From an uncultured bacterium (GTDB lineage: Bacteria; Oederibacteriota; Muellerivitia; Muellerivitales; Muellerivitaceae), in the NCBI GenBank assembly GCA_964624625.1, contig CAZUXW010000004.1, forward strand, positions 28,931 to 92,930: a stretch of DNA of 64,000 bases, written 5' to 3'. Shown piece after piece: positions 1 through 29,854 of the stretch. The notes beneath the pieces are model-generated. The model was given only the letters and a program-made list of their open reading frames with translations, made no database searches and was not told where the DNA came from. The position numbers were made by a program, and so were the translations under genes. The stretch's first letter is position 1; every line of letters starts with the position of its first letter.

Positions 1-747
1 AAAAAATTCAAGAAAAGCTCGAGAAAGGCTTTGATCCTCCGGCTCAACAGCCCCGGGGGAGCGGTCGCGCCTTCCCAGGAGATTTATTCGGAGATCCTCA
101 GCGCCAGGGAAAGCAAGAAAATCGTCGTGGCCAGCATGTCCAGCATGGCCGCTTCCGGGGCCTATTACATCGCCGCCGCCTGCGACCAGATCGTCGCCGA
201 TCCCGGGACCTTGACCGCTTCCATTGGGGTGATCGCCGAGTTTCCCGACGCCTCGGGGCTTTTGAAAAAGGTCGGGGTTAATTTTCAGACGATCAAAAGC
301 GGAAAATTCAAGGATACGGGGTCCTTTAACCGCCCCATGAATCCCCAGGAGAGGGAATATCTCCAGGAAACCATCATGGATGTTTTCCAGCAGTTTTTGG
401 GTTCCGTCCTGGACGGCCGCAAGGCGGCGTTTCAGGGCCGATTGGCTGAAATCTTAAAAAAGAAAAAGGAATTGGTGACCGACCAGGAAATCCGGAATTT
501 CGTCACGCCTTACGCCGACGGCAGGGTCCTGACGGGGAAAAAAGCCTTTGAGCTTGGTTTTGTGGACCAATTGGGGAATTACGAGGTCGCGGTAAAATTA
601 ACCGCCCAATTAGCCGGGATCAAGGGGGATCCGGTGGTGAAGACGGACCAGGCGGTCAAACTCGACCAGATCCTGAACGGCATCCTGCCCTTTTCCTTCT
701 TGGCGAGGGCTAACAACGGCTTTCAACTGGAGTACCGGGCTTTCTAA
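1..747 (+). CDS. sppA: Signal peptide peptidase SppA (protease IV, S49 family), C-terminal part; 5' end lies upstream of the window
   Basis: The ORF is open to the window edge. The translation (…VVASMSSMAASGAYYIAAACDQIVADPGTLTASIGV…) recalls the S49 SppA catalytic region from memory. Confidence 0.7.
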   Translation, partial: KKFKKSSRKALILRLNSPGGAVAPSQEIYSEILSARESKKIVVASMSSMAASGAYYIAAACDQIVADPGTLTASIGVIAEFPDASGLLKKVGVNFQTIKSGKFKDTGSFNRPMNPQEREYLQETIMDVFQQFLGSVLDGRKAAFQGRLAEILKKKKELVTDQEIRNFVTPYADGRVLTGKKAFELGFVDQLGNYEVAVKLTAQLAGIKGDPVVKTDQAVKLDQILNGILPFSFLARANNGFQLEYRAF

Positions 748-833
748 TTCGGGGCTTTTTTGAATATGGAGGAAGGGCGTCCTTTTCGCCTTGAAGCTGG
801 AAACGAATAACTGTTTATCACAAGGGGGATATC

Positions 834-2699
834 GTGGCTGAATCCGCAAATCAGGCTCCAACTCCGGCAGCTGTTATTCCTCCGCCGGTTGAATCGGCAC
901 CGGCGCAACCGAAGGTTACGCGCCGCGAGAGCAAGTTCATGAAGGCCATGTCCAAATTAATGACCACCACGGCCTGGATGGGTTTCGCCGTCGGTTTTAT
1001 CCTGCTGGGAATCTTTAACCATTACCACGAGTTGGTTCCCGCGGCGGCCAAGGCTCCCTTCGCCCTGCTTCTCCCCCATTTGTCCTATTTCCTCGTCGGA
1101 CTGGGATTGGGGTGCATCGCCAAGATCCGCAACGGCGTCCAGGACGACTATTCCGCCGAATATAAGAAGAACCGGCAATTCTCCCACGCCTGGAAGATCC
1201 CCTTGATCGTGGTGGAAGTCCTGATCTACGTGGTGCTCGGAATTTACGGGGTCCTGGTCGGCGTCGGAAAAGTCGAGGCGGTCCAAAATATTTCGGCGCT
1301 CCTCTCGTTGTTTATTTTGTTTTTGCTTTATCTCCTCTGGTACGCCATTGCCTTCATCATGAACCGGTCGCCGGCGCGCGCCGGTTTTCTGGTCGCCGGA
1401 TACCTGGGGTTGGCCCCGGCTTTCATCTCCATTTGCTTCTGGGTTTCGCAGTTTATTTTCTTGAGCCTGGTTTTCGCGGTCCTGGCGCTGATCGCCACCA
1501 TCGTCGGGCTTACTATTTCCTCGACGCCGGGCCAGGAACAGCGGTTGAATGGGATGAGGATTTTGTGCGCGGCCGGCACCCTCGGCCTTTTATTGATCGT
1601 GGGGCTGAACGCCAGTTCCTACGGTAATTCCCGCGCGGTCCTGGCGGGGCTGGGGTTAGCCTCGAAGAATCCGATGGGTAATATCGGCGTGATCGCCTAT
1701 TCCCCGGAGGACCTGAAAGTATTAAACAATCCCCAGACCGCGAACCGGCAAAAGCTGGCCTTTTCAATTCACACCCAGGAAGGCTGGTTCCTTCAAGTCA
1801 TCGAAGCCAGGGAGAAGGAGTTTATCACCTCCTACAAGGTCCCGGCGGGGGAGGGCCCCTTCCGGCCCGTTTTCGCGGAAGGTGGCAAATCCATCATCCT
1901 CGATCCCGTCAAGGGTGGGGAGAGGGGCCTTTGGAAAGTGGACGCGGCAACGGGCCGGGTGGAAGTCCTCCGGCGCGGCGGAGTCCGGGACTTTGGCGAC
2001 GGCACTCCCTGGTCGGAAACGACGAAGCAATTTTTATACGTGACCGGGGACGATTCGGGCTATCAATTGAATGTTTACCCAGCTGGCAAGTCCAAAAAAG
2101 CGCTCCTGACCAGCGCCTCGCCCATCCTCTCGCCTTCTTGGACCATGTCGGGCGATCTTATTTCCTATGCCGACGGGACCCACGGCGTCTTTCGCGTCCT
2201 GAACCTGAAAACGGGCAAATCGGAGGCTTTGTTGTCTGATCAGGAAAAGGCCGAGAACCAGAAAATGGAGGGCATCGCCGTCAAGGAAGTGATCCCGGCC
2301 CCCGACGGTTTCCGCTACCTTTACCTGGCCGAGGAGGGGAAGGAATCATCCCTTTGGCTGGTGTTGGCCGACGGAACCAAACGGGAGAAGATTTACGAGA
2401 GCCGGGGGGAATTGAGCAACATCGCCTGGAATCCGGACGCCCAAAAGGTCCTGTTTGAGGAAAAAAGAAGCCGGTCGGTATTCCTCAATTTGTTCTACCC
2501 TTACGGATTTTTAACCGAGTCCCGGAGGATCAGGATTTTGGACGCCAACTTAAACACGGCCGAGGACCTCATTTTCCCGCAAATTTCCCACAGGGCTCCC
2601 GCGGTTTCCCCCGACGGCGTCAAGGTGGCCTTTGTGGCGGACCAGGGACTATGGCTGCGCCGGGGAAGTCCGGCCATTTGGGTGGCGCATCTTAGGTAA
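834..2699 (+). CDS. Polytopic inner-membrane protein (~7 predicted TM helices) with a C-terminal TolB-like PD40 beta-propeller
   Basis: GTG start preceded by AAGGGGG. The N-terminal ~300 aa contain several long hydrophobic stretches. The C-terminal half carries PD40-type repeats (SPSWTMSGDLISYA, AWNPDAQKVLF, AVSPDGVKVAFVAD). Confidence 0.6.
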   Translation: MAESANQAPTPAAVIPPPVESAPAQPKVTRRESKFMKAMSKLMTTTAWMGFAVGFILLGIFNHYHELVPAAAKAPFALLLPHLSYFLVGLGLGCIAKIRNGVQDDYSAEYKKNRQFSHAWKIPLIVVEVLIYVVLGIYGVLVGVGKVEAVQNISALLSLFILFLLYLLWYAIAFIMNRSPARAGFLVAGYLGLAPAFISICFWVSQFIFLSLVFAVLALIATIVGLTISSTPGQEQRLNGMRILCAAGTLGLLLIVGLNASSYGNSRAVLAGLGLASKNPMGNIGVIAYSPEDLKVLNNPQTANRQKLAFSIHTQEGWFLQVIEAREKEFITSYKVPAGEGPFRPVFAEGGKSIILDPVKGGERGLWKVDAATGRVEVLRRGGVRDFGDGTPWSETTKQFLYVTGDDSGYQLNVYPAGKSKKALLTSASPILSPSWTMSGDLISYADGTHGVFRVLNLKTGKSEALLSDQEKAENQKMEGIAVKEVIPAPDGFRYLYLAEEGKESSLWLVLADGTKREKIYESRGELSNIAWNPDAQKVLFEEKRSRSVFLNLFYPYGFLTESRRIRILDANLNTAEDLIFPQISHRAPAVSPDGVKVAFVADQGLWLRRGSPAIWVAHLR

Positions 2700-2725
2700 T
2701 TTTTAGCCCGGTCAAAGGGTCGTCC

Positions 2726-5700
2726 ATGAAGCCATTGAAGGGCCGCCGCTCCAATTTTCCATCCCTCCGTCGATGGCTTTTATCGGCCTCGCTCCTTCTT
2801 TCTATTCCGTCCCTCTCCTGGGGCCTGGAGTTTGGGATGAACAAGGTCCGGTACCACACGGACCATCAATGGAAAATCCTGGAGACGGAGCATTTCGAGA
2901 TTTATTACTACCAGGAATGCGAGACCCTCGCCCAGGCCGCGACCGGCTACGCGGAAAAGGCCTTCCTGAAGATCAGCAAAAGCTACGACTTCGTCCCCAA
3001 GAATAAAATCCCCCTGTTTATTTACGGCACTTCCACCGAGTTCCAGGAAACCAACATCACTCCCCAGGCCCTGCCCGAGGGAGTGGGGGGATTCACCGAG
3101 GTTTTCAAGAACCGCATCGTGGTTCCCATGGGCGGATCCTACCATGAGTTCGAGAAGGTCATCACCCATGAATTGACCCATGCCTTCCAGTACGACATGA
3201 TTTACGGCGAGGGTTGGCGCTCGGTGAACCTCTTCAAGGCGGTCTTCGTCCCCAATTGGATGATGGAGGGCATGGCTGAGTGGACGGCCCAGCATTGGGA
3301 ATCCCAGGGAGAGATGGTCCTGCGGGACGCGGTCCTGAACGACCAGGTCATCCCCCTGAATATGCTGGAATCCTTCGACCATTTCGAGCAGGTTTACATG
3401 GCTTACAAGGAATCCCAAAGCATCTTGGAATACGCCTCCCAGCTTTACGGCCCCGAGAAGGTCTACCAGATGATGAAAAAAATGGCCTCCAACCAGCAGG
3501 CCGACACGGTCCTGAAGTCCGTCCTGGGGGTTTCCCTGAACGAGCTTTTCGAGAACTGGCATTTTTACATCAAGTCCAGCGCCTGGGCGAGGATCCAAGG
3601 GATGCCTCCTCCGGACAAATACGGGGATTCCTTGGAGATGGGGGTCGCCAAGGCCGCGGCCTCGCCCGATGGGAAATGGGCGGCCTACCTGAAGGGAAGG
3701 GACCTGGTCCTTTGGGAAGTTTCCACCAAGAAAAAGACAACCCTCCTCCGGGAAAATTTCCAAACCCAGGGATCGGGAATCGCCTGGTCCCCGGACGGTA
3801 AAGAACTCGCCTTCGCCTCCAACCGGGATGGCGACTATATCCTCAAAACCATCGACCTGGGCAGCCGCAAGACGAGGGAACTCAAGGTTCCCCTTATGCC
3901 CTTGATCTATTCGCCGTCCTGGTCCCAGGACCAAAAGTTCCTGCTTTTTTCCGGTTTTGACTACCGCACCGTGGATTTGTACCGCTTGGAACTGGCCACC
4001 GGGAAGATCGACCGGCTCACCGACAACCAGGAAAGCGAATCCTGGGCCTGTTATTCGCCGGACGGCGCCAGCCTTTTTTACCTCGAGGAGGGCGGCGGGG
4101 AAACCAGGCTCAAGCGGGTGGATTTGGATTCCCGGGGCTTGCCCTTAAAGACGCCTATTTTAGTGGGAGGCGACCTGGGAACCGTCTCCTCTTTTCGAAT
4201 CGCGAAGAACTCGATTTACCTGACGTCCAATAAGAACAAGAGGATTTTCAACCTCTACCGCATGGATTTGGATGGAAGCCATTTGACCCAGCTGACGAAT
4301 AGCTTCGTGGACATCCTCAGCGCAGCCCCCGGCCCCGGCGCGGAGGATTTTTATTGCTGTCTTTACCGGCGGGGCCAGGAATCCCTCTCCCTGTTTCGCG
4401 CTGAAAAGCTGGAACCAACCCCCCCGCCCTCCGATGCTTCCGGCTATTTGGCCAATCGTTTCGACAACGCGTCGAACTTGATTCCCTCGGCCGCCGCTCC
4501 CCCTAAGGACGCGGAGAACCAGGACAACGCCGAAAAAACGGAGCAGGATTCGGCGAAGGACAAAAAAGAACCGGCGGCGCCGCCCATGGCCGTTTCCCGC
4601 TTGGAAGTCGTGGAAGCGTCCAATTTGGTCCAGCTCCAGTGGCCCGTGACCGCCGTGGAACAGGAAGCCGTAACCAGCTACCATGTTTTCCGATCCAAGA
4701 CCGCGGACGGGGATTTCGACCTGGTCGGAACCGTCTCCCCGGTTCGGCAGGGACGCTTCACGGATTATGACGTCCAAACGGGCGAGAATTATTTTTACTA
4801 TGTCACGGCCGTCAACAAGGCGGGCGAAAGCCCCCCCTCGCCCCCGCTGGAAGTCCAGCCCAATTTTAAGATCGTGTCCAGGGATTACCACCTGAAGATA
4901 TCCCCGGACATTCTTCTTTTCCTGGCCGGCTATGACAGTTCCTTCGGCTTCGTGGGGGGAGGTGTCCTCCAAATGAGCGATTACCTGGGCGACCACAGGC
5001 TGGCCATCCTGGGGGACACCATTCCCAGCGTCCGTACGGGCGTCGAGGCCAATTACCAGTTTTCCGCCTGGCGGACGACCGTGGACCTCAACTTTTTTTA
5101 TTTCCAGAATTTTTTCAGGATCTTCGACGTCCAAACGGGGAGCCTGGTGGATGAGTACCGCAACAACGAGAATGGGCTGGACGTGAATTTCACCTATCCC
5201 CTGGACCAGACCACGAGGTTCGAGTACGGGTTGGGGACCCAGCGTTTCCAGGGAAGCCCCCTGTTCCTGCGTTTCTCCGAGGGTATCTCCAATTATTTCC
5301 AAAACACGGACCAGTGGAACGTGGCCAACTATTACCGCGTCTCCCTGGTCCAGGACAAGCGGCGGGCCACCCAGTTTTGGCCGAGCAGCGGATACGCGGC
5401 GAATTTCACCCTGCTGCACGCGGTCCCGGTCCTGGACGCCAATGTTTCCTTCGCGAACCTTTTGTTGGAGACCCAGTTTTACGCCGATATCGGGTTTTTG
5501 AACCACTTGATCTGGGCGAACCGTATCGTCGCCATGACTTCCCAGGGCCCCAATCCCCAGTCCTTTTTTATCGGGGATGACGCGCCCTTCCAGGCTTTTT
5601 TCACGACCATCCGGGGCTACGGGGCAGGGACCTTTTTTGGGTCCAATTTAGGCCTCTGGAACATGGAGTTCCGTTATCCGATCGCCACCAACATGAATTT

Positions 5701-5950
5701 CGTGCCACAGCCCCTGTCGTTTGTCCTGATCAAGGATATCGAGCTGGCGGGGTTCTTGGACGCAGGCGTGGTTTCCAACCAATTGCAGGACCTTCCCTCG
5801 GCGCCCTTGCTCAGCAGCATCGGAACGGGAATCCGATTTTATAATTTTGTCTATCAAAGGGCCCTGGTCATGCTCCGGTTCGACGTGGCTTGGAGGCTGG
5901 ACCAGGCAGGGCCGCCTAGTTTCCACTTTAACTTGACCCCCATGTTTTGA
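2726..5950 (+). CDS. Chimeric outer-membrane protein: signal peptide, HExxH zinc-metallopeptidase (MA-clan-like) domain, PD40 beta-propeller, fibronectin-III domain and C-terminal Omp85/BamA-type (bacterial surface antigen) beta-barrel
   Basis: N-terminal signal peptide (LLSASLLLSIPSLSWG). HELTH zinc motif with a downstream MEGMAEW glutamate. PD40 repeats (AWSPDGKELAFASNRDG, YSPSWSQDQKFLLF, YSPDGASLFY). FN3-like block (YHVFRSK…YFYYVTAVNKAGESPPS). C-terminal Omp85 signatures (TTIRGYGAGTFFG…NMEFRYP…GFLDAG…GTGIRFY…) ending in F. The gene starts 27 nt after the preceding gene. Confidence 0.7.
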   Translation: MKPLKGRRSNFPSLRRWLLSASLLLSIPSLSWGLEFGMNKVRYHTDHQWKILETEHFEIYYYQECETLAQAATGYAEKAFLKISKSYDFVPKNKIPLFIYGTSTEFQETNITPQALPEGVGGFTEVFKNRIVVPMGGSYHEFEKVITHELTHAFQYDMIYGEGWRSVNLFKAVFVPNWMMEGMAEWTAQHWESQGEMVLRDAVLNDQVIPLNMLESFDHFEQVYMAYKESQSILEYASQLYGPEKVYQMMKKMASNQQADTVLKSVLGVSLNELFENWHFYIKSSAWARIQGMPPPDKYGDSLEMGVAKAAASPDGKWAAYLKGRDLVLWEVSTKKKTTLLRENFQTQGSGIAWSPDGKELAFASNRDGDYILKTIDLGSRKTRELKVPLMPLIYSPSWSQDQKFLLFSGFDYRTVDLYRLELATGKIDRLTDNQESESWACYSPDGASLFYLEEGGGETRLKRVDLDSRGLPLKTPILVGGDLGTVSSFRIAKNSIYLTSNKNKRIFNLYRMDLDGSHLTQLTNSFVDILSAAPGPGAEDFYCCLYRRGQESLSLFRAEKLEPTPPPSDASGYLANRFDNASNLIPSAAAPPKDAENQDNAEKTEQDSAKDKKEPAAPPMAVSRLEVVEASNLVQLQWPVTAVEQEAVTSYHVFRSKTADGDFDLVGTVSPVRQGRFTDYDVQTGENYFYYVTAVNKAGESPPSPPLEVQPNFKIVSRDYHLKISPDILLFLAGYDSSFGFVGGGVLQMSDYLGDHRLAILGDTIPSVRTGVEANYQFSAWRTTVDLNFFYFQNFFRIFDVQTGSLVDEYRNNENGLDVNFTYPLDQTTRFEYGLGTQRFQGSPLFLRFSEGISNYFQNTDQWNVANYYRVSLVQDKRRATQFWPSSGYAANFTLLHAVPVLDANVSFANLLLETQFYADIGFLNHLIWANRIVAMTSQGPNPQSFFIGDDAPFQAFFTTIRGYGAGTFFGSNLGLWNMEFRYPIATNMNFVPQPLSFVLIKDIELAGFLDAGVVSNQLQDLPSAPLLSSIGTGIRFYNFVYQRALVMLRFDVAWRLDQAGPPSFHFNLTPMF

Positions 5951-6044: not shown

Positions 6045-6743
6045 TTGGTAGGGCAGGGGGTACCAGTTATAATGGACCCTCTTAAAAAGGCCGCACTTCA
6101 AACGAGGAGTAGGTTCTTGAAAAAACTTTATTTTACAACCCTTTTCGGCCTTTTACTCACTGGTTCGATCCTCCTGGCCAAGCCCGCCGAGGAATTTAAC
6201 ATGGCTCAATACGAAATCATGGATCTGGATTTTCTCCGCACCCATTACAACGAGATCAATAACTGGCGCCAAATTCAAATTGACGGCACCTTTAGCTCCC
6301 TTAAATGGATGCCGCCCTACCAGTATAAGGAGCGCTTGAGCGCCATTGGGTTTGACGTCAACCAATATCATGTTCTTCAATTTGGCTTGAAGGAAAGTGA
6401 TGATTTTCATTATGGCTTTCCCCTTTTGCTTTTTAAAACCCAGGCGGGGGATTTGACGGAATTAGACCAGCTGGAAAAAGGGGAAAGGGTCACCCTCTAC
6501 GGCAGGTTCTTTAACCTGGCGAAATCCGAGTACGCCATGGAAGTGGACGTTTTGGAGACGGTAAAAAAAGGCGGCCATGACCGAAGGATATTGGTCGACG
6601 CCAGAGTTGCCCCGACCTTCACCCCCACCGCGACCATCACCAATACGCCAGGCCCCAACCTCTGGCAAAAGGTCTATTACAAGATCAATCCCAAGGAAAC
6701 GGCCACGCCGACCGGCACCATTACCCCTGAAGCCGGCAAGTAA
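6045..6743 (+). CDS. Hypothetical secreted protein with a Thr/Pro-rich C-terminal tail
   Basis: ORF with a hydrophobic signal-like segment (LFGLLLTGSILLA). I recognise no family. The true start may be the internal M at about 6072. Confidence 0.4.
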   Translation: MVGQGVPVIMDPLKKAALQTRSRFLKKLYFTTLFGLLLTGSILLAKPAEEFNMAQYEIMDLDFLRTHYNEINNWRQIQIDGTFSSLKWMPPYQYKERLSAIGFDVNQYHVLQFGLKESDDFHYGFPLLLFKTQAGDLTELDQLEKGERVTLYGRFFNLAKSEYAMEVDVLETVKKGGHDRRILVDARVAPTFTPTATITNTPGPNLWQKVYYKINPKETATPTGTITPEAGK

Positions 6744-7804: not shown

Positions 7805-8584
7805 TTGGCTAATCTGGAAATGGAATCCCAAGTCTTCGGAGAGGGATTTCCGGTTGTTCTTCTTCACGCCTTTCCCCTTTCCCACCTGCTTTGGGAAAAC
7901 CTTCAGACTCCTCCTGGGTTCCAATTGATTTTGCCGGATTTTCCGGGATTTGGGGAATCCCCTTTGGCAACCGCAAGTTTTACGCTGCAAGAGGCTGCCC
8001 TGGGATTGGAAAAACACCTTCAAGAAAAAGGAATTAAGGGTCCCTTTGTCCTTGGCGGCATCTCCATGGGTGGTTATTGGGCTTTGGAATTTATCCGTCA
8101 ATTTCCCGGGCTCGTGAAAGGGATCCTTCTGGTCTCCACCAGGGCCGGAAAGGACCAACCCGAGGCCCGTCAAAAGCGTTTGGACACCGCTTTGAAAGTC
8201 GAAAAAGAGGGAACCGCTTTTTTGGCGGAAGCCATGGTTCCAGTACTTTTGGGTAAAACCACATTGGCTCGAAATACTTCATTGGCTAAAACCGTCAGCC
8301 GTTGGATATGGGCCGCAAAACCTGTGGCGGTCAGCTTGGCCCAAAGGGCTATGGCGGACCGAAGGGATCAAACGGACTTACTTCCGGGGTTGAAAGTAAA
8401 AACCCTGATCTTGGCTGGATCCGAGGATGCTTTAATCCCGAATTCGGAGTCGGAATCCATGGCCCGGATCATTCCTGGCGCAAAGTTGAAAATTTTGGAA
8501 CAGGTCGGTCACTTGCCGCCCTTGGAAGCGCCCGAGATTTTTCAAAAACACCTCGATGATTTTTTATTTCAATTGGACCTTTAA
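7805..8584 (+). CDS. Alpha/beta-fold hydrolase
   Basis: An HAFP-type oxyanion region and a nucleophile elbow (GISMGG), with a catalytic His near the C-terminus (GHLPPLE). AAGGAG RBS upstream. The start could be TTG at 7805 or ATG at 7820. Confidence 0.6.
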   Translation: MANLEMESQVFGEGFPVVLLHAFPLSHLLWENLQTPPGFQLILPDFPGFGESPLATASFTLQEAALGLEKHLQEKGIKGPFVLGGISMGGYWALEFIRQFPGLVKGILLVSTRAGKDQPEARQKRLDTALKVEKEGTAFLAEAMVPVLLGKTTLARNTSLAKTVSRWIWAAKPVAVSLAQRAMADRRDQTDLLPGLKVKTLILAGSEDALIPNSESESMARIIPGAKLKILEQVGHLPPLEAPEIFQKHLDDFLFQLDL

Positions 8585-8737
8585 AAGCGAAAATGGACTG
8601 AGGGTTCTGGTCGAGCTGGTCCTGAGATCGTTTAAAAAAACACTGATTGCGCGCAAAAACGGCCTTTAAAGCCTGTGAATTCTGAACCAGGCATTGAATC
8701 CAGTTGGGGCCCCGCGCCGGGCCTTGAGTCATTTTGG

Positions 8738-8766
8738 TTGACAATTGGGTTCGTAACTTCTATAAC
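8738..8766 (+). promoter_or_regulatory. Sigma-70-type promoter (TTGACA-17 bp-TATAAC) driving the recombinase gene
   Basis: Exact -35 hexamer, a 17-bp spacer and a 5/6 match at -10, placed 30 bp upstream of the AGGAGG RBS. Confidence 0.45.
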
Positions 8767-8786
8767 TACAATTATAGAAGTTACGA
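8751..8786. promoter_or_regulatory. Perfect 15-bp inverted repeat with a 6-bp spacer (TCGTAACTTCTATAA-ctacaa-TTATAGAAGTTACGA): candidate tyrosine-recombinase core site or autoregulatory operator
   Basis: Read directly from the sequence. It overlaps the promoter spacer and -10 and abuts the recombinase RBS. Confidence 0.5.
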
Positions 8787-8796
8787 AGGAGGAGTT

Positions 8797-9882
8797 ATGG
8801 CCGACGATAATCCATCCCAAGCCTTTAACCGCCCTGACGACCTTCAATTGCTGGAGCCCTATTCGGGTTTCTTGGCCCTTCGAAAATCCCCCCACACTAA
8901 ATCAAATTATCACCAGGATCTGAGGGTGCTTAAACAGTTCCTGGATGAATCCCGGTTGACTCCGGCTACGGCCAAACCCCAGGATTTGGCCAGGTTCGTG
9001 GGATTATTAACCAAACCAGGCCAAACGCCGGCCGGCAAGGCCCGCGGTTCCTATTCCACCAGGTCCATGAAACGAATATTGGCCTCGACCAGGTCCTTCT
9101 ACCGCTACCTGGCCTCCATCCAGCAAATCACCAACGACCCCACAGCCGTGTTTCATAACCTCGCGATTCGCAGCCCCCAGCGGAATCCCCGTCCCTTGCC
9201 GCCCCAAGCCAGGGCTGCCATGGTACAGGGCCTTCAGAAAGGCGATTTAGAGGCCTTAAAAGTAAGCCTGGTGGTCCTATTGGGCTACCATTGCGGTCTA
9301 AGGGTCTCGGAAATGGCGCACCTGAGGCTCCTGGATATAGACCTGAACCAGAAGGCGTTAACGGTCATTGGGAAAGGCGACAAGGAGCGGACCGTTCCCA
9401 TGACCGACGCTTTGAGGGACCTTCTCAAGCGGTATTTGGAGGAATGCGGTTCGGAGAAGGCTGGAGCCTCAGGGCCTTACTTATTTCCAAGCCCCCGCAG
9501 TGCGCAAAAGCCGATTCATCCTCATTTTTTGGAGACCTGGGTTAAGAAAGCCGCCCTATGGGCGGGTTTGGAAAACCCGGAGGATCTCACGGTTCATGTT
9601 TTAAGGCACACCTTTGGCACTCAATTGGCTGAATCAGGAGCCAGTGTTTATGAAATCCGCGATTTGATGGGCCATTCGAGCATCATGGTCAGTGAAAGTT
9701 ACGTGAAGCTAGCTTCCACGAAGGCCAAGCAGGCCCATGGGCGGGCTTTTGGAGGCGGCAACAAGGTCCATGCCTTAAGCTTGGAAGGCTCAGGGGGCCC
9801 TCGGGAGGTTTTACGGCGCTATCGGGCCAGGGGACGAAAAGCTTTACGGGACCCCTGGCCCGAGGATCCTGAAGCTGATTAA
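8797..9882 (+). CDS. Tyrosine-type site-specific recombinase/integrase (XerC/D-phage integrase family)
   Basis: C-terminal catalytic signature HVLRHTFGT…GHSSIMVSESY (R-H-R-Y family). ATG at 8797 is preceded by AGGAGG; the longer ORF from 8734 is rejected. Confidence 0.8.
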   Translation: MADDNPSQAFNRPDDLQLLEPYSGFLALRKSPHTKSNYHQDLRVLKQFLDESRLTPATAKPQDLARFVGLLTKPGQTPAGKARGSYSTRSMKRILASTRSFYRYLASIQQITNDPTAVFHNLAIRSPQRNPRPLPPQARAAMVQGLQKGDLEALKVSLVVLLGYHCGLRVSEMAHLRLLDIDLNQKALTVIGKGDKERTVPMTDALRDLLKRYLEECGSEKAGASGPYLFPSPRSAQKPIHPHFLETWVKKAALWAGLENPEDLTVHVLRHTFGTQLAESGASVYEIRDLMGHSSIMVSESYVKLASTKAKQAHGRAFGGGNKVHALSLEGSGGPREVLRRYRARGRKALRDPWPEDPEAD

Positions 9883-14509: not shown

Positions 14510-14586
14510 TGGTCGGGGCGGCAGGATTTGAACCTGCAACCTTTTGCACCCCATGCAACTGCGCTACCGGGTTGCGCCACGCCCCG
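14510..14586 (-). tRNA. tRNA-Pro (anticodon GGG)
   Basis: Reverse complement folds as acceptor CGGGGCG/CGCCCCG, D arm GCGC…GCGC, anticodon loop ATGGGGT, T arm GCAGG-TTCAAAT-CCTGC and a CCA end. Confidence 0.8.
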
Positions 14587-14625: not shown

Positions 14626-14701
14626 TGGTCGGGGTGAGAGGATTCGAACCTCCGGCCCCTTGGTCCCGAACCAAGTGCGCTAGCCGCTGCGCTACACCCC
14701 G
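14626..14701 (-). tRNA. tRNA-Pro (anticodon CGG)
   Basis: Reverse complement folds as acceptor CGGGGTG/CACCCCG, anticodon stem CTTGG/CCAAG with loop TTCGGGA, T loop TTCGAAT and a CCA end. Confidence 0.85.
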
Positions 14702-20478: not shown

Positions 20479-22587
20479 TTAAATATGCGGCTGGGAGGCC
20501 AGAAAATCGGTAATGGTAGCCTTGTCCGGCGGGTTAGGCACTAACAGCAAATAACGCTCGAACATTTGGGCCGCGTAATCAGCCCTGGTTCTCATATTCA
20601 TGTAACCCAAGGTCCGATAGGCCTCGGCGTAATTGGGATCAAGGCTTCGGACCGTTTCCCATTCCTTGGTCGCCTGTTCGAAGAGCCCGGCCTGGAAGTA
20701 CTGAAAGCCCAGGTGCTGATGGGCGTCCGTGGAGCTGGGATTTAATTTGACGGCCTTCCGGAAGAACTGAAGGGCATCCTTCGGATTTTTTTGGTTCTCG
20801 GCCAAGATTCCCCGGTCAAACCAGGGAAGAAAATAACCAGGGGACAATTGGGACGCCTTCTCGAAGGAAAGGGCCGCGTGATCGGTCCAGCCCTGGCTGT
20901 TCTCCACCACGCCGGCGTTGAGGAAAAGGCGGCTATTGTCGAACCCGATCGCCTTGGCCTGCATCAGGCAATCCTCCCCCATGAAGCCGCTTTTCGCCAC
21001 CTCGAGGCCGTAGGAAGCCTTGAACAGGTAATAGCGCGAGGCTGTTTCCCGCGACAAGTAATCATGGTTCAGTTCGACCCTGGGAGTCCTGAAATTCTGC
21101 CATAGGAATTCCTCCGCAGGCGGTGGATGTCCCCCATAAGCCTCCCAAAAGAGCAGTCCCTTCATCAGGAGGGTTTCCCGGGGCGCGTCGATTTTCTCGC
21201 TGTAAAAAACAGCCGAGGGGTTCTGGCGGGCTTCGTAGTTTCTTTCCGCCGCCGCCAAGAGGGGCGGGGCCGTTCCCGTCTCGTTCCGGTAATCCAACAA
21301 ATGGTAAATGTCCGGAAAGAGTCCTCCGGTGCGGTCGAAGATGTCCAGGTCGGGACGCAAATGGCGGACGAGTTTCAGGTAAGCCAAGGGAAAGGTGATG
21401 GAGTCACCCGAGCTGAAAAGAACCGAATGGGCCGGCATTTGGGAAAGGATGTCCAGGCCGACGTCCTCCACCGCCAAGTTCCGGCTGGAGTTGTTTTGGG
21501 TGAAGGCGGAAAGGGTTGAGCCGCAGAGGATGAGCGCCGCCGCCGGGATCAGGAGTGGTTTCCAGGAACCCCTTCGGGCAAAAATCCATTCCAGGCCCCT
21601 CAGAATGAGGGGTGAAAACCAAAGAAGGGCCGGGGGAAGAAAAGCCCCGTTGATGTGGTTGTTTTCGGGATTGTAATCATCCCGGATCAGGAACGGAAGA
21701 AGGATGAAAAGGCAAGAGGCCCCGATGAAATATTCCGGTTGGATCCCCTTCCGGTTTTTCCAAAGGCCTGCCGCCAGGAGAACCGGGCCCAGGCCCCAGG
21801 ACTCCAGCAGGAAATCCTTCGTGTAGAGGTAAAGGTCCCAAAAACCATTCAGGAAGGATCCGGTGGAGATGTCGCCGCCATATTGGGCCCGGGTGACATG
21901 GTAAAAAAGCTGTTGGAAGGTGGAGGGGTTTCCCCAATTGACCAGGGGAGCGAGGTTGGCACGGAGCGGAAGGACGAGGTAGGGTGATAATCCGAGGCAA
22001 AGGAGCGAGGAGGCGATCGCGGCTTTTTTACCGTCCTTAAGCTCATTTCGATAAGCCCATCCCAAGGCTGGAAGGATCAAGAAGGTTAGGTGCTGATGGG
22101 ACAGGGCGGCTCCTGTCAGGAAGCCGGCGGCGTAAAGATTGAATGTGGTTGGAAAAAGGACGAAGTTCAATAGACCCGCGGTGAAAAAAAGATGCAGCGC
22201 GAAAACTTCCGGGCTGACCATTTGGTGAAAAACCAGGGGTCCGGCCATGACCAAGCCGGCGGCCAGCAGGACAAGGGAATTTTTCCCGGTGGGGGTGTTG
22301 GAACTTCCGGCGAACTTTCCGAGGGTAGGGACCAAGACCATCAAGGCGGCGGTTTGGGCCAGTATCGACAAAAAAGTCATTCGAAAGGCGGGGGAACCTA
22401 ACGGTAAAAGCTGGGCCAAACGGCCGAGTGTGACGAAAAGAGGGTAGCCCGGAGCGTGGGCGGAGCCCAGGTGAAAGGCGGCGGCGGTCAACTCAGGCGC
22501 GTCCCCCCCCACCATCCCAGGCGCCGCCGCCGCCAAGGATAGGGCGATCCAAATAAAAGGAAGGGCTCCGGTGAAAACCGTGATCAT
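20479..22587 (-). CDS. DUF2723/TMEM260-like polytopic membrane protein fused to C-terminal TPR repeats
   Basis: The N-terminus (GGDAPELTAAAFHLGSAHAPGYPLFVTLGRL) resembles the DUF2723 signature. About 11 TM helices are followed by soluble TPR repeats. Confidence 0.6.
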   Translation of the reverse strand: MITVFTGALPFIWIALSLAAAAPGMVGGDAPELTAAAFHLGSAHAPGYPLFVTLGRLAQLLPLGSPAFRMTFLSILAQTAALMVLVPTLGKFAGSSNTPTGKNSLVLLAAGLVMAGPLVFHQMVSPEVFALHLFFTAGLLNFVLFPTTFNLYAAGFLTGAALSHQHLTFLILPALGWAYRNELKDGKKAAIASSLLCLGLSPYLVLPLRANLAPLVNWGNPSTFQQLFYHVTRAQYGGDISTGSFLNGFWDLYLYTKDFLLESWGLGPVLLAAGLWKNRKGIQPEYFIGASCLFILLPFLIRDDYNPENNHINGAFLPPALLWFSPLILRGLEWIFARRGSWKPLLIPAAALILCGSTLSAFTQNNSSRNLAVEDVGLDILSQMPAHSVLFSSGDSITFPLAYLKLVRHLRPDLDIFDRTGGLFPDIYHLLDYRNETGTAPPLLAAAERNYEARQNPSAVFYSEKIDAPRETLLMKGLLFWEAYGGHPPPAEEFLWQNFRTPRVELNHDYLSRETASRYYLFKASYGLEVAKSGFMGEDCLMQAKAIGFDNSRLFLNAGVVENSQGWTDHAALSFEKASQLSPGYFLPWFDRGILAENQKNPKDALQFFRKAVKLNPSSTDAHQHLGFQYFQAGLFEQATKEWETVRSLDPNYAEAYRTLGYMNMRTRADYAAQMFERYLLLVPNPPDKATITDFLASQPHI

Positions 22588-24685: not shown

Positions 24686-26575
24686 CTAAAAAATAACTTC
24701 AATTCCCCCGCGGATGTGAAACCTCGGCTCCAAGTATCCAGGCTGGATTTGGTAATTCTCTCCCAGCAAATTATCCCCATTCAGCCATAGGGAGAAAGTC
24801 TTGCTCAAATGGTAAGTGGCGTCAAGCCCCAGGGTCCAGTAGGCGGGTAAGGACCCAGGCAGGCTGTCGAACGCCTGCCGGTCCGACATGGCCTGCAATT
24901 CCAACCTTGTTTCCAACTGGTCGTCCCCGCGATAAATGGAAAGGATGCCCCGGTGCGCGGCTAATCCCGTAACGTTCAAACCATCCCCGGAGCGGTTCAT
25001 GCCCTGGGTCCATTGATAGGTCGCGGCAGCCTGCCAATCCTTCATGAAGTTCCATTGAACATTGGCCCCGGCCTTGGTGATTTCAACCTCGCCGAGGGTG
25101 GAATAGGCCTGGATTTGGACCGGCGCCGAGGGAGATATGTCGGTCCATTGGTGGTCGTTTTGAATCCTGGCGACGGAGGCGGAAAGCGAGGTGATGATTT
25201 TTTCCGATATTTTTTGGGTGAACCGGCCTCCCCACTCGCCGGTCACCTCCGTGGCCAGGGGAAAACCCGTTTCCGGGGCCACATGCTCGTTGTTCATGTA
25301 GGTGTTATGAAAACTATCGACGTAACGGTCCGTGCGCCAATACAGATTGAGCTGGCTTTGGCCGAAAAACCGCCACATGAGGTCCAGAACGGGGAAAAAT
25401 TTGAGGGGAAGGTCCAATCCGCTTCCGCCCTGTCCTTGGAGTTTGGCCGTTAAGGACAAGTTTTCCCCGTGTTTTAAAAAGGCCTGGAGGCCGAACCATG
25501 CCCAGTCATAACTGGTGACGGCGGGCGAGGCGAAATCCGAGGTCGCCCTCCTGCCGCCGGCCTCTAATCCGACGCGGTTCAGGAAAGGATCCAGGTCCTC
25601 GGCGGTTACCTTAAATTGGCCTTCCAACTCGCCGGTTTGGTTGGTTTTGGCGCTTCCGTCCCAGTAGGACAAGGTCGTCGGCTGGTTTGAGATTTTCACT
25701 TGGGCCTGGACCAGGTTTGAGATTTTCCAATGGAGGTCCGCGCTTTGTTCCGAACCCTGATGGGTTTCCCGAATCGAGCCTTGGTAAGGCAGCTCATCCT
25801 CGATTTGGGAGATATTCCCGGCCAAGCGGAGGCTGAAGGGTGTCGAGGAGAATAATTTGACGTCCAATCCGAAATTATAGCGCTTGTCCCCGTCCCGTCC
25901 GGCTCCCGCCGCCTCGCCGCCCCAAGTCGAGTAAAAACCGTTCAACAGGTACTGAAGATCCTTGAATTCCTGGCCGAACAGCCCCCAGCCGCCGTAGCTG
26001 TCGGGAGTTCCTCCGCCCGCGTGCAGGATAAAGGCCGTGTCCTTCGAGGGGCCCGCTTCCTCCGCGGTCAAGGCGGTAAAGGTTTTATTGAGGCCGGGAA
26101 GATCGTTGATGGCTCTTTCCACCCCGGTCAGATCGTGGCTTCCCAAGGTTACGTCATTCTCTTTTCGATCCAGCCTCTTGGCGCCGATGGTCAATTCGTT
26201 TTCCCCCGTGATGACGACTTCAGGCAGGGAAAATTCCGGAACCGCGGTGGGCCGGCTTTGAACGGGGGCCTTTTCACCCTCGCCTTGGGATGGTTTTTGG
26301 TTGGCGCCAGGGGCCTGACCGGATGGTTCTCCCGGGATTGCCGCCGCGTCGGGCTTGGAGATATCGGATTTATCCGTCGCGGGGGTGGCGGAAGAGGTCA
26401 AGTCGCTGTCGGGAAGGATCGTCTCTTCGGCCTGGACGGAGGCGGCCATCAAACCTAAAACGCCGAAAAATAAAAATAGCCGATAGAGGCCGATTTGTCC
26501 GGCGGAGTTTTTGCGGAGCCGGAGGGAGGCCGGTGGGAAACCTTTTGGGCGGGGGATTTTTATGGGACTTTTCAC
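24686..26575 (-). CDS. Outer-membrane beta-barrel protein, TonB-dependent-receptor-like
   Basis: A signal peptide, a low-complexity Pro/Ser/Gln linker, a plug/TonB-box-like PEVVITGE, aromatic-rich beta-strand periodicity and a C-terminal …GGIEVIF. At 629 aa it is short for a canonical TBDR. Confidence 0.5.
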   Translation of the reverse strand: MKSPIKIPRPKGFPPASLRLRKNSAGQIGLYRLFLFFGVLGLMAASVQAEETILPDSDLTSSATPATDKSDISKPDAAAIPGEPSGQAPGANQKPSQGEGEKAPVQSRPTAVPEFSLPEVVITGENELTIGAKRLDRKENDVTLGSHDLTGVERAINDLPGLNKTFTALTAEEAGPSKDTAFILHAGGGTPDSYGGWGLFGQEFKDLQYLLNGFYSTWGGEAAGAGRDGDKRYNFGLDVKLFSSTPFSLRLAGNISQIEDELPYQGSIRETHQGSEQSADLHWKISNLVQAQVKISNQPTTLSYWDGSAKTNQTGELEGQFKVTAEDLDPFLNRVGLEAGGRRATSDFASPAVTSYDWAWFGLQAFLKHGENLSLTAKLQGQGGSGLDLPLKFFPVLDLMWRFFGQSQLNLYWRTDRYVDSFHNTYMNNEHVAPETGFPLATEVTGEWGGRFTQKISEKIITSLSASVARIQNDHQWTDISPSAPVQIQAYSTLGEVEITKAGANVQWNFMKDWQAAATYQWTQGMNRSGDGLNVTGLAAHRGILSIYRGDDQLETRLELQAMSDRQAFDSLPGSLPAYWTLGLDATYHLSKTFSLWLNGDNLLGENYQIQPGYLEPRFHIRGGIEVIF

Positions 26576-29500
26576 TTGGAAACCTCCGTTGGAACGCCAG
26601 CGGCAGGGCCGGCTGTCGTGGGAGCGGCGCCTGGGTTCACGGTTTCAACCGGCGCGGCCGTTGGTTCAGCCTTTGCCGGTCCTGGTTCGGGGGTGGAGGT
26701 TTTCACTTTTTTACCATTTCCTTTTCCTTTTTTCACCGGTTTGGCCTTGGCGGGTTTTTTGGCCCTCTCCTTGGCCAAGAAGGGTTCTAACGCCTTGAGC
26801 CGTTTCAAGGTCGCTGAGCGGTAAGATTTAATGTGGGTGTATTTCAAGATTCGGTTATAGGTCTCCTCCGCCTTGGTAAATTGCTTCATGGACTCGTAAC
26901 ATTCCGCCATCTTGGCGAAGGCCGTCACGACCCATTGGTCCTGGGAGGGGTATTGAATCGTGATATGGTTGAACTCGCTGACCGCTTCCGAGTACTTCCC
27001 CCCCTGCTTCAGGAGGTCGGCGTGGTAAAAAGCCGCTTCCACCGCCAGTTTTTGGTTTTCGGAACGCATGGTCACTTCGTAAGCTTTCGAGGCCTCCTCT
27101 TTACGCCCGTTTTTTTCCAGCAGGACGCCGGCCTGGAGGCCCGCTTCCTGGGCTAGGGGATCCGAACCATAGTCCTTTAAAAGTTTTTGGAAATATTCCA
27201 GGGATTTATCCGGATGGCCCAATTGCTTCTCGCAGATGGCGCTGTTGAAGAGGGAGTGGGGCGCCAAACGGTGGTCGGGGTAGTCTTGAAAAATGCCCGT
27301 ATAGGAGGCGAGGGCGTCCTTGAAATCCTGGGTCTCGAAATAAATGGAGCCGAGGCTGAATTGCCCCTCCAAGGCCAATGGATCGGTTGGGAATTTTTTT
27401 AAAAGGTCCTGGAAGACAGGCAGGGCCTCCTTGTTTTGCCCGTTTTTCACCAGGGCCGTTCCCATCCAAAAAAGGGACCGGGGGGCTTCGGCGCTGGCAG
27501 GATACTTATCGAGCAGGGTTTTGTAGGCCTCCACCGCTTCAGGGTATTTCTCGTCATGGAACAAATTATCCGCCAGACGGTACTGGATGCTCGGGGCAAA
27601 GGAGCTTCCGGGGAATTTTTCCAGAAAATCCTTCGCCACCTTCGAGGACTCGGACTTTTCCCCGAGCTTTTCCGAGGACCATTGGAGGCCGTAGAGGGCG
27701 TCGGGCAAGAGCGGATGCTCGGGATAGAGATCCATGAAGCTGCGGTAGACTTTTTTCGCTTCCGTGAACCGCTTGAGGTTAAAAAGGCAGTCCGCTTCCC
27801 TGAGATGGGCCTCGGGGGCCAGGCTGTCCTTGGGGTTTTCCGCCTCCACTTTGCCGAAAAGAACCTGGGCGGAATCGAAATCCTTGTCCCGGAAACAAGC
27901 CCAAGCGGTCCAGTAGGTCAGCCGCGCCTTGCGGTCCTCCGTTCCCGGTTTTAGGAGGAGCGCCTTCCAGAGTTCCCTGGCATGGGGGAATTTTTCCTGG
28001 CGGTAGGCGCACCAACCCAGCTGCTCCATCGCGTCCAGGGAATAGGGGGCGGCGGCCTTGTCGGTGACCAATTGGCGGTAGAGGGGTTCCGCCTTTTCGT
28101 ACTGGTGCTGGTTGTAAAAGCAATCCCCTGCCCGGAGCTGGGCTTCCATCCCCAAGGGTGAGGAGGGGTTTAACCGGTAGGATTTTTGGAAATTTTTGGC
28201 GGCGTCGTCGTATTTTTCCTGCTGAAAAAGACTCCAGCCGAGCCCGGAGAGGCAATTCAAGGCCAGGTTATCCGCCGGTTGTTTTTGGAGGGCGGCCCCA
28301 TATTCTTTCTCCGCTTCCGGGTAATTTTTTAATTGGTAGTCCGTTTCCGCGGCCCCCCAAAGGGTCCTGGTCTTGAGGTCGCCCTCGGCATCCTTGGCCA
28401 CCTCGCGGAAGGTCGTCAAAGCGCTGTCGTATTTCCCCGTGGCGTAATCGCACCAGGCCTTCCAATAGGAGGAAGCTTGGGCCAACTCACCAGGCCCCTT
28501 CTCATGGGTTTGGCTGTAAAGATCCCTCGCCGCATCGTATTTTTCCTGAAGGTAGAGGCATCCGGCTTGTAGATATTGGGCGTCCCAGCGCAGGTCGCTT
28601 TCCGGAAGGAACTTAGCGACGGCCTCGAAGTGGACCTCGGCCGAGTCAAATTGGCGGTTGGAATAATCGATCCAACCCAGCCCGTATTCCAGGAGGTCGG
28701 CCGGGGTTTTATGCCCCGCCAACTCCAGGCCCCGGCGGTAGGCTTGTCCCGCCGCCTCCTGGTCCCCCAGGACGGAGGATTCGGCGCCCTGCCGGGCCGC
28801 GGCCCAAGGCGCCAACAGGTGGGTGGGAAAGGAGGCGACGATCTTGCCGAAGGTCTTTTCGGCCTGGCTGTGGTTTTTTTGTTTTTCCAGGGTCCAGCCC
28901 AGCCCATAAAGAGCCGGCGCCTCCAGGAAATCATCCGGATATTTTTTCAGGAAATACTCGTAGCCCGTTTGGGCGTCCTGGAAATTTCCAAGGCGGAAGT
29001 GGGTTTCCGCCAATTGAAAAAGCGTCAATTTGGAAAGGGTGTTGTCCTCAGGGGATTTTTCCAGGACCTGGGTGAAGCCCTCCAAAGCCTGGGTATAGTC
29101 GTTGTGCTGGTAGTAGCACCAGGCCCTCAGGTAGCGCACCAAGTTGGCGTATTGGTAGTTTGGATTTTGGTCCAGGATTTTGCCGTATTGCCTTCCGGCG
29201 TTCTCGTAGTCCTCCAGTTGGAAATAACATTCCGCCTCCCAAAAATAAAGGTCGGAGAATGTGTCCGGCTCAAAGGCCCGTTTTTCCAACTCTTGGAACT
29301 TGTCGATGGCCGACCGGTAATTTTTCAGGTAAACGGAGGACACAGCCGATTTAAATTCCAGCCCCAAGGCCCCCGCGGAGAGGGGGTTTAAGTGGAGCGA
29401 TTGTTGGTAGGCCTGGTAGGCGGAGGCGTAGTCCTTCTCGTGAAATTGCGTCTCGCCGATCAGCCGCAGGGCCAGGGCCCTTTCAATGGTGCTTTCGCTT

Positions 29501-29694
29501 TTTTCCTCGACGAGAAGAAATTGCTCCATGGCCAGGTGGTAGGCACGGGATTTCAACAGGGCTTTACCCTGGTCCGCGGGGGAGGGCGGGTCGATGCCGG
29601 CGGCGGACAAATGGCTTGGCCCCCATTGGGCGCAAATCAGCGCAACCCCAAAAAGAATGGGGCGTAAATGGCGAAGGGAATATTTCGGGGTCAT
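26572..29694 (-). CDS. Large (~1040 aa) periplasmic TPR-repeat scaffold protein with a Lys/Pro/Ala-rich C-terminal tail
   Basis: A signal peptide at MTPKYSLRHLRPILFGVALICAQWG, then about 25 TPR-like repeats (recurrent Y..A….G.Y..A pattern). The tail reads KKPAKAKPVKKGKGNGKK…. Its stop overlaps the OM-barrel start. Confidence 0.6.
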   Translation of the reverse strand: MTPKYSLRHLRPILFGVALICAQWGPSHLSAAGIDPPSPADQGKALLKSRAYHLAMEQFLLVEEKSESTIERALALRLIGETQFHEKDYASAYQAYQQSLHLNPLSAGALGLEFKSAVSSVYLKNYRSAIDKFQELEKRAFEPDTFSDLYFWEAECYFQLEDYENAGRQYGKILDQNPNYQYANLVRYLRAWCYYQHNDYTQALEGFTQVLEKSPEDNTLSKLTLFQLAETHFRLGNFQDAQTGYEYFLKKYPDDFLEAPALYGLGWTLEKQKNHSQAEKTFGKIVASFPTHLLAPWAAARQGAESSVLGDQEAAGQAYRRGLELAGHKTPADLLEYGLGWIDYSNRQFDSAEVHFEAVAKFLPESDLRWDAQYLQAGCLYLQEKYDAARDLYSQTHEKGPGELAQASSYWKAWCDYATGKYDSALTTFREVAKDAEGDLKTRTLWGAAETDYQLKNYPEAEKEYGAALQKQPADNLALNCLSGLGWSLFQQEKYDDAAKNFQKSYRLNPSSPLGMEAQLRAGDCFYNQHQYEKAEPLYRQLVTDKAAAPYSLDAMEQLGWCAYRQEKFPHARELWKALLLKPGTEDRKARLTYWTAWACFRDKDFDSAQVLFGKVEAENPKDSLAPEAHLREADCLFNLKRFTEAKKVYRSFMDLYPEHPLLPDALYGLQWSSEKLGEKSESSKVAKDFLEKFPGSSFAPSIQYRLADNLFHDEKYPEAVEAYKTLLDKYPASAEAPRSLFWMGTALVKNGQNKEALPVFQDLLKKFPTDPLALEGQFSLGSIYFETQDFKDALASYTGIFQDYPDHRLAPHSLFNSAICEKQLGHPDKSLEYFQKLLKDYGSDPLAQEAGLQAGVLLEKNGRKEEASKAYEVTMRSENQKLAVEAAFYHADLLKQGGKYSEAVSEFNHITIQYPSQDQWVVTAFAKMAECYESMKQFTKAEETYNRILKYTHIKSYRSATLKRLKALEPFLAKERAKKPAKAKPVKKGKGNGKKVKTSTPEPGPAKAEPTAAPVETVNPGAAPTTAGPAAGVPTEVSK

Positions 29695-29854
29695 GGGTCG
29701 CACGCTATTTTGACGAGGGAATGGCCCGGGGGTTACCACTGAAATTTCTTCGGACGGTTTAAACCGCCCGGGGGACGGTTGAAACGCCCGAAAGGGCCTT
29801 GGGGCCCCGCACCGATGGGAGGATGGCTGGCGCAAGCGGACCGTTTATCCGCGG

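Follow-up and report, generated by a model that had tools for sequence, protein, structure and literature searches.

A POTRA-free Omp85 protein with a predicted zinc peptidase, a TolB-type propeller and an FN3 module: a member of the WD40-like subfamily from an uncultured bacterial phylum

The subject of this study is gene B, which encodes a protein of 1074 amino acids (aa) on a 64,000-nucleotide (nt) stretch of DNA from an uncultured bacterium (assembly GCA_964624625.1, contig CAZUXW010000004.1, positions 28,931 to 92,930 of the forward strand; hereafter the window). In this protein a predicted zinc peptidase domain, a propeller and an FN3 module precede a C-terminal outer membrane barrel of the Omp85 superfamily. 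An earlier reading of the sequence (the original prediction) had recognised these parts and took their combination to be undescribed. That claim is refuted by the WD40-like subfamily of Omp85 proteins published by Heinz & Lithgow in 2014 (PMC4104836), to which gene B belongs by its domain content and structural likeness; it does not represent a new class. The architecture is thus already named and its function unstudied, and what is new is a member from an uncultured phylum that carries an FN3 insertion. With modest confidence we take gene B to encode an outer membrane-tethered zinc peptidase that faces the periplasm, is gated by its propeller and takes part in the turnover of envelope proteins or peptides.

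Domains and predicted fold of gene B

Pfam and NCBIfam searches and an AlphaFold2 model agree on every part of the protein that had been claimed (signal peptide, HExxH peptidase, PD40 propeller, FN3 and Omp85 barrel). All Pfam matches exceed their curated cut-offs: Peptidase_MA_2 at aa 76-283 (E 4e-18, 66.3 bits vs a cut-off of 32.4), PD40 (E 8e-10), fn3 at aa 625-710 (E 5e-6, 27 bits vs 25) and Omp85 PF01103 at aa 782-1069 (E 7e-10, 39.3 bits vs a gathering score of 24). From NCBIfam, a TolB-propeller model matches aa 313-468 (E 3e-23), and NF047779 (Omp85_fam) matches at E 4.5e-13, below its cut-off. The N-terminus reads as a Sec-type signal peptide devoid of a lipobox cysteine, and the model has a low predicted local distance difference test score (pLDDT) in this region (aa 1-34). 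The public gene call for this same protein (P0001, 1037 aa) begins only at Met38 and therefore lacks the signal peptide (window 2726..2836). The 1074-aa reading from position 2726 agrees with the N-terminal lengths of gene B homologues.

Gene B was aligned with 69 homologues of 25-78% identity, and the resulting alignment of 70 sequences was fed to AlphaFold2. In the model (mean pLDDT 86.9, predicted template modelling score 0.87), an alpha/beta-plus-helical peptidase domain (aa 49-290) is followed by a propeller (aa 300-558), from which a low-confidence linker (aa 560-625) leads to a beta-sandwich (aa 627-710) and 16 barrel strands (aa 725-1072). The propeller has six blades of the TolB type, and TolB is its nearest structure. 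In structure comparisons the barrel superposes on BamA and TamA.

The original prediction had also noted the absence of POTRA domains, and this holds. The POTRA family PF07244 matched neither gene B in the Pfam search nor any of the precomputed domains of 120 listed homologues. Furthermore, the FN3 module ends at about aa 710 in the model and strand 1 starts at aa 725, which leaves no room for a POTRA domain; the FN3 module directly precedes strand 1, at the position that POTRA holds in BamA. This sets gene B apart from canonical BamA, TamA and TpsB. It does not reach the BamA equivalog TIGR03303 (OM_YaeT; 22.6 bits vs a cut-off of 297.15), nor the TolB equivalog TIGR02800 (82.6 bits vs 343.15). 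The latter aligns with the propeller part alone (profile positions 199-355), and the TolB N-terminal domain is absent. The lack of POTRA fits the non-POTRA subfamilies of Heinz & Lithgow.

Zinc site and conserved motifs

The quoted motifs are present in the protein: HELTH at aa 148-152, WMMEGMAEW at aa 178-186, RGY at aa 963-965, FLDAG at aa 1010-1014 and the last residue, F1074. The zinc site of gluzincin type, as predicted, is intact, with the HExxH residues, E181 and Y227 invariant in 70/70 sequences. HELTH and E181 both lie on helices in the model (aa 139-160 and 177-188), and a beta-strand is found at aa 123-125 within a third conserved motif, GVGGFTE (Table 1). From what is seen in thermolysin-fold peptidases, GVGGFTE is a candidate edge strand for substrate binding.

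In profile alignments WMMEGMAEW is matched with WFDEGTAEF of the collagenase ColG and with WWSEGIAEY of a second collagenase. The profile matches of the peptidase domain are weak (3cia, E 0.003; 7esi, E 0.12; ColG, E 0.17). The alignment of HExxH and W-x-x-E-G-x-A-E to ColG, together with a weak match to an M1 aminopeptidase, supports a gluzincin assignment in which E181 would be the third zinc ligand. Like the M9 and M1 gluzincins, gene B has HExxH followed about 28 residues on by a glutamate in the W-x-x-E-G-x-A-E context, and it has the double-glycine edge strand that is a feature of M9 collagenases. The differences are that the similarity is marginal, that collagenase activator and accessory domains are missing and that the Pfam family concerned, Peptidase_MA_2, is a catch-all. 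The GxMEN exopeptidase motif of M1 is not present in gene B, which has GGFTE in its place, and the Peptidase_M1 family score is not reached (E 0.09, 12.8 bits vs a cut-off of 27.7).

Conservation is highest in the peptidase domain, which shares 41.7% identity with distant members, as against 24% in the propeller and 27% in the barrel. This pattern argues for selection on catalysis.

In BamA, TamA and FhaC the hallmarks of the barrel are (V/I)RG(F/Y) in loop 6 and FxDxG on strand 13. The gene B barrel retains them and is a genuine Omp85 barrel. In the model the RGY loop joins strands 11 and 12, and 70/70 sequences end in F or Y.

Distribution and earlier description of the family

A word-indexed search returned 1580 proteins at E <= 1e-5. 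Typical members are 930-1150 aa long and have PF13485, PF07676 and PF01103; the Pfam scan of the family covered five diverse members. Scanning one genome per species for a single peptide pattern confirmed at least 596 gene B loci in several phyla. The lineage of the window is candidate division FCPU426, and most of its relatives at 50-78% identity bear this label; a few bins are labelled otherwise, such as Proteobacteria or Solirubrobacteraceae. At greater distance the family is found in Goldbacteria, Firestonebacteria, Zixibacteria, Ignavibacteria/Melioribacter, Bacteroidota and Chitinivibrionales, and also in Spirochaetia, Coatesbacteria, Eisenbacteria and Nitrospirota. The Melioribacter roseus genome encodes a full-length homologue (aligned over aa 18-1070, 27% identity) with Peptidase_MA_2 and PD40 matches. 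Three accessions listed by Heinz and Lithgow presumably belong to this species, and we take FCPU426 to have been outside their proteome set.

The stretch between propeller and barrel is poorly conserved and varies from 0 to 95 aa across the family. Most members have 0-30 residues from propeller to barrel, and in many no more than 10 separate the propeller from the pre-barrel segment. The FN3 module with a long linker is restricted to the clade of the window and a few other lineages.

The WD40-Omp85 or WD40-like subfamily goes back to Heinz & Lithgow (2014, PMC4104836), who called the subfamily TolB-like and likened it to a fusion of BamA and BamB. Their Table S2 gives PF01103 and PF07676 profiles, and Table S3 gives about 100 members with matches to the BamA/TamA barrel, to TolB and to a 'best aminopeptidase hit', for instance tricorn factor F3, aminopeptidase A, ERAP1 or collagenase. 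The main text centres on WD40, with the peptidase part confined to the supplementary table. Two papers of 2024 present the group as Omp85 proteins with divergent WD40 and peptidase domains (PMC11358297) and as highly conserved yet uncharacterised (PMC11116518). The original prediction had considered that the architecture might turn out to be a family both named and characterised: a name exists, a functional characterisation does not (PMC11116518).

What gene B shares with this subfamily is the combination of PF01103 with PF07676 (PD40), the TolB-like propeller, the aminopeptidase/collagenase-like N-terminal region and the absence of POTRA, as well as phyla such as Ignavibacteria with Melioribacter. 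The features of the wider Omp85 superfamily are also found, namely PF01103 above threshold, a C-terminal barrel of 16 strands and the loop-6 and FxDxG motifs. The clade of the window differs in adding the low-complexity linker of about 65 residues and the FN3 module.

Gene order around gene B

The neighbours of gene B are those originally described (open reading frames, Pfam, hydropathy): sppA, then gene A, which encodes a polytopic inner-membrane protein with a propeller. The gap between gene A and gene B is 26 nt, on the same strand. In the clade of the window, a gene A homologue lies directly upstream of B in every locus that reaches far enough upstream, within the block mutL-miaA-nudix-sppA-A-B-232aa-...-hydrolase-xer, where 232aa is the gene for a 232-aa protein. 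The sppA-A-B genes remain contiguous even where their flanks have been inserted, inverted or moved (L013, L014, L016, L025, L027). The two-gene module that had been proposed does not hold up more widely. Adjacency of A and B is limited to this clade and one distant locus (L062), and elsewhere sppA-A occurs without B and sppA-B without A. It follows that sppA is the shared neighbour of A and B.

Wherever an FCPU426-type locus retains any of this linkage, sppA is directly upstream of A, of B or of both. Four distant B homologues (L030, L031, L040, L043; about 34% identity) directly follow sppA, with no gene A and with the other syntenic genes gone. At the genomic level, the link to sppA in FCPU426 is compatible with a common pathway.

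In L062 ('bacterium DBS1-3.bin31') a gene for a 776-aa protein with seven helices and a propeller (1352..3682) lies between sppA and B (34% identity). This protein ends in LWVADLR, and gene A ends in IWVAHLR. The locus is a distant copy of sppA-A-B, so that the triad may be old and eroded.

At the position of B, L087 and L089 have a small gene of no family (8463..8960, 165 aa, and 8090..8776, 228 aa, respectively), and no remnant of B was detectable there. In L007 (Coatesbacteria) and in L001 and L005 (FCPU426), genes for a sigma-70 factor, a phosphoribosyltransferase and a TPR protein are found within a few kb of B, while the rest of the surroundings differs between the two phyla; these genes may be left over from an older neighbourhood. 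Neither tol nor pal genes were recognised close to gene B in the loci examined.

Gene A and other genes of the window

The gene A protein begins with a positively charged N-terminus, continues with about seven hydrophobic helices and ends in a propeller. If the helix count is odd and the N-terminus cytoplasmic, as its basic residues suggest, the propeller would face the periplasm. The membrane domain has no Pfam or NCBIfam family. An exhaustive phmmer search of 1.84 billion representatives gave 26 relatives of this domain and no link to a known family; the full-length relatives are 546-697 aa long and the remainder, of 101-490 aa, are fragment-like. A word-indexed search of a 5.8-billion-protein index gave 17 homologue clusters for gene A, and the same 17 were obtained with an alignment as query. 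The gene A family is tiny and lineage-specific. Its propeller matches TolB and S9-peptidase propellers in Foldseek and is 29% identical to that of gene B over 154 aa.

The sppA gene, which lies 86 nt upstream of gene A, matches Peptidase_S49 (E 2.7e-42, Pfam) and TIGR00706 (SppA_dom, 176.2 bits vs a cut-off of 155.45). A scan for promoters and terminators gave weak consensus matches only. Downstream of gene B, the 232-aa protein has no Pfam or NCBIfam match. Its gene follows gene B throughout the clade of the window and stays with sppA-A in L087-L089, where B is absent. The protein is lineage-specific and its place in the module is uncertain.

Table 1. Features of the sppA-A-B region (window coordinates).
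Feature	Position	Strand	Basis or remarks
sppA, 3' part (36K-type signal peptide peptidase, S49)	31..747	+	5' end outside the window
Candidate weak terminator-like hairpin, 5-pair stem then GGCTTTTTTG	735..762	+	Consensus scan; overlaps the sppA stop codon
Gene A, 621-aa inner-membrane protein	834..2699	+	Open reading frame, hydropathy; AlphaFold2 pLDDT 79.7
Gene A membrane domain, aa 42-264, orphan 7-helix domain	957..1625	+	Hydropathy
Gene A propeller, aa 270-621, TolB/PD40 type	1641..2696	+	TIGR02800 E 1.8e-14
Gene B, 1074-aa peptidase-propeller-FN3-Omp85 protein	2726..5950	+	Open reading frame, Pfam, NCBIfam, AlphaFold2 model
Gene B Sec-type signal peptide, aa 1-33 (MKPLKGRRSNFPSLRRWLLSASLLLSIPSLSWG)	2726..2824	+	Sequence reading; predicted cleavage site
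Gene B gluzincin-type zinc peptidase domain, aa 40-290	2843..3595	+	Peptidase_MA_2 E 4e-18
GVGGFTE strand, aa 119-125, candidate substrate-binding edge strand	3080..3100	+	G121, G122, F123, E125 invariant 70/70
HELTH zinc-binding/catalytic motif, aa 148-152	3167..3181	+	H148, E149, H152 invariant 70/70
WMMEGMAEW, aa 178-186, E181 predicted third zinc ligand	3257..3283	+	W178, E181, G182 invariant 70/70
Gene B six-bladed TolB-type propeller, aa 297-560	3614..4405	+	
Gene B low-complexity Pro/Ala/Lys/Glu-rich linker, aa 561-625	4406..4600	+	pLDDT 48-79
Gene B FN3 module, aa 626-712	4601..4861	+	Pfam fn3; Myomesin FN3 E 1.2e-5; beta-sandwich pLDDT >90
Gene B 16-strand Omp85 barrel, aa 722-1074	4889..5947	+	
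Loop-6 RGY, aa 963-965	5612..5620	+	R963 invariant 70/70, G964 68/70; IRGY spans 962-965
FLDAG (FxDxG), strand 13, aa 1010-1014	5753..5767	+	F 68/70, D1012 70/70, G 67/70
232-aa protein downstream of gene B	6045..6743	+	One N-terminal hydrophobic segment, Thr/Pro-rich tail

Elsewhere in the window, minus-strand open reading frames of about 1070 and 1086 aa, with neighbours of about 573-629 aa, were considered as paralogues of B and A and rejected. They turned out to be a TPR protein, ribosomal protein S1, a sub-threshold PMT_2 protein and two proteins of no family. Two large frames (34384..37599, about 1070 aa, and 24686..26575, about 628 aa, both on the minus strand) have no Pfam match at E <= 1e-3. 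The frame of about 1070 aa follows one of about 573 aa (37596..39320) with a weak, sub-threshold match to the PMT_2 glycosyltransferases, and the protein of about 1086 aa (26572..29835, minus strand) consists almost entirely of TPR repeats. Other minus-strand genes encode a TMEM260-like O-mannosyltransferase fused to TPR repeats (20479..22587) and an 805-aa envelope protein with FlgD_ig, Big_13 and OmpA domains (61167..63587). Two tRNA genes (14513..14586 and 14629..14701, minus strand) are the sole Rfam matches in the window.

Possible function of gene B

A periplasmic peptidase anchored by an Omp85 barrel could work as follows. The Sec signal peptide would export the protein, the 16-strand barrel at its C-terminus would insert in the outer membrane, and the N-terminal enzyme module would hang from it in the periplasm, in the clade of the window by way of the FN3 module and the flexible linker of about 65 residues. 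The HExxH motif and E181 would bind zinc, E149 would act as catalytic base, and substrate binding may be aided by Y227 together with the GGFTE edge strand. The six-bladed propeller might admit only unfolded chains or oligopeptides, much as the propellers of DPP-IV, prolyl oligopeptidase and tricorn do. Possible substrates are stalled or misfolded outer membrane proteins and peptide fragments. In FCPU426 gene B is linked to sppA, which encodes an inner-membrane signal-peptide peptidase, and in one clade also to gene A; this linkage suggests that the three proteins may act in the same envelope-proteolysis pathway.

Several observations favour this topology and activity. An Omp85 barrel has its two ends on the periplasmic side. 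Taken together with the near-absence of a linker in many homologues and with the periplasmic location of PlpD, this points to a periplasmic enzyme module. The N-terminal domain of PlpD was reassigned to the periplasm by experiment (PMC11116518), and the N-terminal regions of Omp85 proteins are treated as periplasmic (PMC11358297). The invariance of H148, E149, H152, E181, Y227 and GGF-x-E among 70 homologues, down to 25% identity, supports an active enzyme.

Known systems provide partial counterparts. At the BAM complex BepA is a periplasmic HExxH peptidase working at an Omp85 machine, and its edge strand engages an unfolded outer membrane protein substrate (PMC8423444, PMC13478230). It is the best functional analogy for a role in quality control, with an HExxH peptidase tied to an Omp85 barrel in both cases. 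However, BepA is a soluble M48 peptidase with TPR repeats that sits non-covalently on BAM, whereas the gene B peptidase is of the Peptidase_MA_2 family, is fused to its barrel and has a propeller. PlpD, formerly held to be secreted and now placed in the periplasm (PMC11116518), resembles gene B in carrying an N-terminal enzyme on an Omp85 barrel, and is a case of the Omp85 scaffold put to new use as the anchor of an enzyme in the envelope. PlpD differs in being a lipase with one POTRA domain that forms a homodimer; gene B has a zinc peptidase, a propeller and no POTRA. DPP-IV, prolyl oligopeptidase (S9) and tricorn are serine peptidases, soluble or anchored by a single pass. Gene B, in contrast, would combine a gluzincin N-terminal to the propeller with a beta-barrel anchor and a putative gating function.

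A number of points tell against a propeller-gated periplasmic peptidase in a pathway with SppA. The gating is proposed by analogy with these enzymes. The conserved lock of Omp85 loop 6 could mean that the barrel has a function beyond anchoring. At loci with no B, distant gene A homologues (L087-L089) are still found in the order mutL-miaA-nudix-sppA-A, along with the 232-aa gene, and in Goldbacteria, Coatesbacteria and about 50 other non-FCPU426 loci B has neither sppA nor A as a neighbour. Because of this second observation, the inferred link to an sppA pathway may be specific to one lineage or a matter of simple synteny. Finally, our literature search found no functional studies of peptidase/WD40 Omp85 proteins or of Peptidase_MA_2 in them.

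That the adjacency of A and B, and of sppA, is mere gene order inherited within one candidate phylum and of no functional meaning, and that B works alone as in other phyla, is a real possibility to which we give a little less than an even chance. The whole block from mutL to xer is syntenic in the clade of the window, homologues in Goldbacteria and Coatesbacteria have unrelated neighbours, and A and B have each been lost from the locus in some genomes. Simple inheritance does not readily explain why the link between sppA and B outlives the other synteny in five distant loci (L030, L031, L040, L043 and, with the A-like gene in between, L062), nor why sppA-A-B stays contiguous despite the rearranged flanks in L013, L014, L016, L025 and L027.

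Gene B might instead be a specialised insertase of outer membrane proteins, a BamA paralogue with its own BamB-like scaffold, in which the barrel does the work, the propeller docks partners or substrates and the peptidase, like a built-in BepA, does no more than triage failed clients. BamB itself is an eight-bladed propeller of the PQQ type, unlike the six-bladed TolB-type propeller of gene B. The idea of a BamA-BamB fusion has been published (Heinz & Lithgow 2014, PMC4104836), the barrel superposes on BamA and TamA, the RGY of loop 6, FxDxG and the terminal aromatic residue are kept across the family, and BepA does bind BAM for quality control. We nevertheless regard an insertase as unlikely, since gene B has no POTRA domain, stays at 22.6 bits against the 297 of the BamA model TIGR03303 and has a barrel that is less conserved than its peptidase (27% vs 41.7% identity to distant members).

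The original prediction also proposed a surface-protease or autotransporter-like class (type Vd), in which the barrel would move the peptidase and propeller outside to digest external proteins for nutrition or defence. Carriers of the family include Ignavibacteria and Bacteroidota, which are protein-degrading heterotrophs, and the disordered linker of about 65 residues in the clade of the window could in principle thread a pore. Translocation is also among the options given for enzyme-Omp85 fusions (Heinz & Lithgow, PMC4104836). Omp85 topology speaks against such a class, and so does the fate of its model case, PlpD, whose N-terminal domain was placed in the periplasm on re-examination. Moreover, the joint between propeller and barrel, at 0-10 residues in many members, could not span the membrane, neither POTRA nor features of two-partner secretion type were found, and the passenger is a folded 520-aa module of two domains N-terminal to the barrel, unlike that of classical autotransporters. 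An external protease thus appears quite improbable.

It is very unlikely that gene B is one half of a Tol-Pal-like bridge, with proteolysis secondary and with the A and B propellers binding each other or a Pal-like or peptidoglycan partner: both propellers are TolB-like, the two genes lie 26 nt apart on one strand and adjoin in every window-clade locus extending upstream of B, and L062 offers a distant sppA-A-like-B copy, but B occurs at at least 596 loci in many phyla against some 17-26 gene A clusters, A is found without B at the same locus and B without A elsewhere, and gene B scores 82.6 against 343 bits with the TolB equivalog and lacks the TolB N-terminal domain.

Of the trans-envelope proteolytic or quality-control device that was originally put forward, proteolysis in the periplasm thus survives as the best reading, and an obligatory device of A and B does not. 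A further reading, for FCPU426, would be an envelope-spanning proteolytic relay in which SppA and A capture and cut membrane-released peptides or misassembled envelope proteins and hand them across the periplasm to B. We consider this a slim prospect. If true, the relay would serve quality control or peptide clearance in a way for which no counterpart has been described, and would provide the first function for the WD40-like Omp85 subfamily.

Significance for the family

Non-POTRA Omp85 proteins are a recognised blank spot, and within them the WD40-like subfamily is widespread and unstudied. The analysis of gene B adds to this family a set of invariant catalytic residues, a peptidase that is its most constrained part and a confidently predicted fold free of POTRA. 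It also adds an FN3 module at the POTRA position in one clade, a distribution over hundreds of species and a link to sppA in one candidate phylum.

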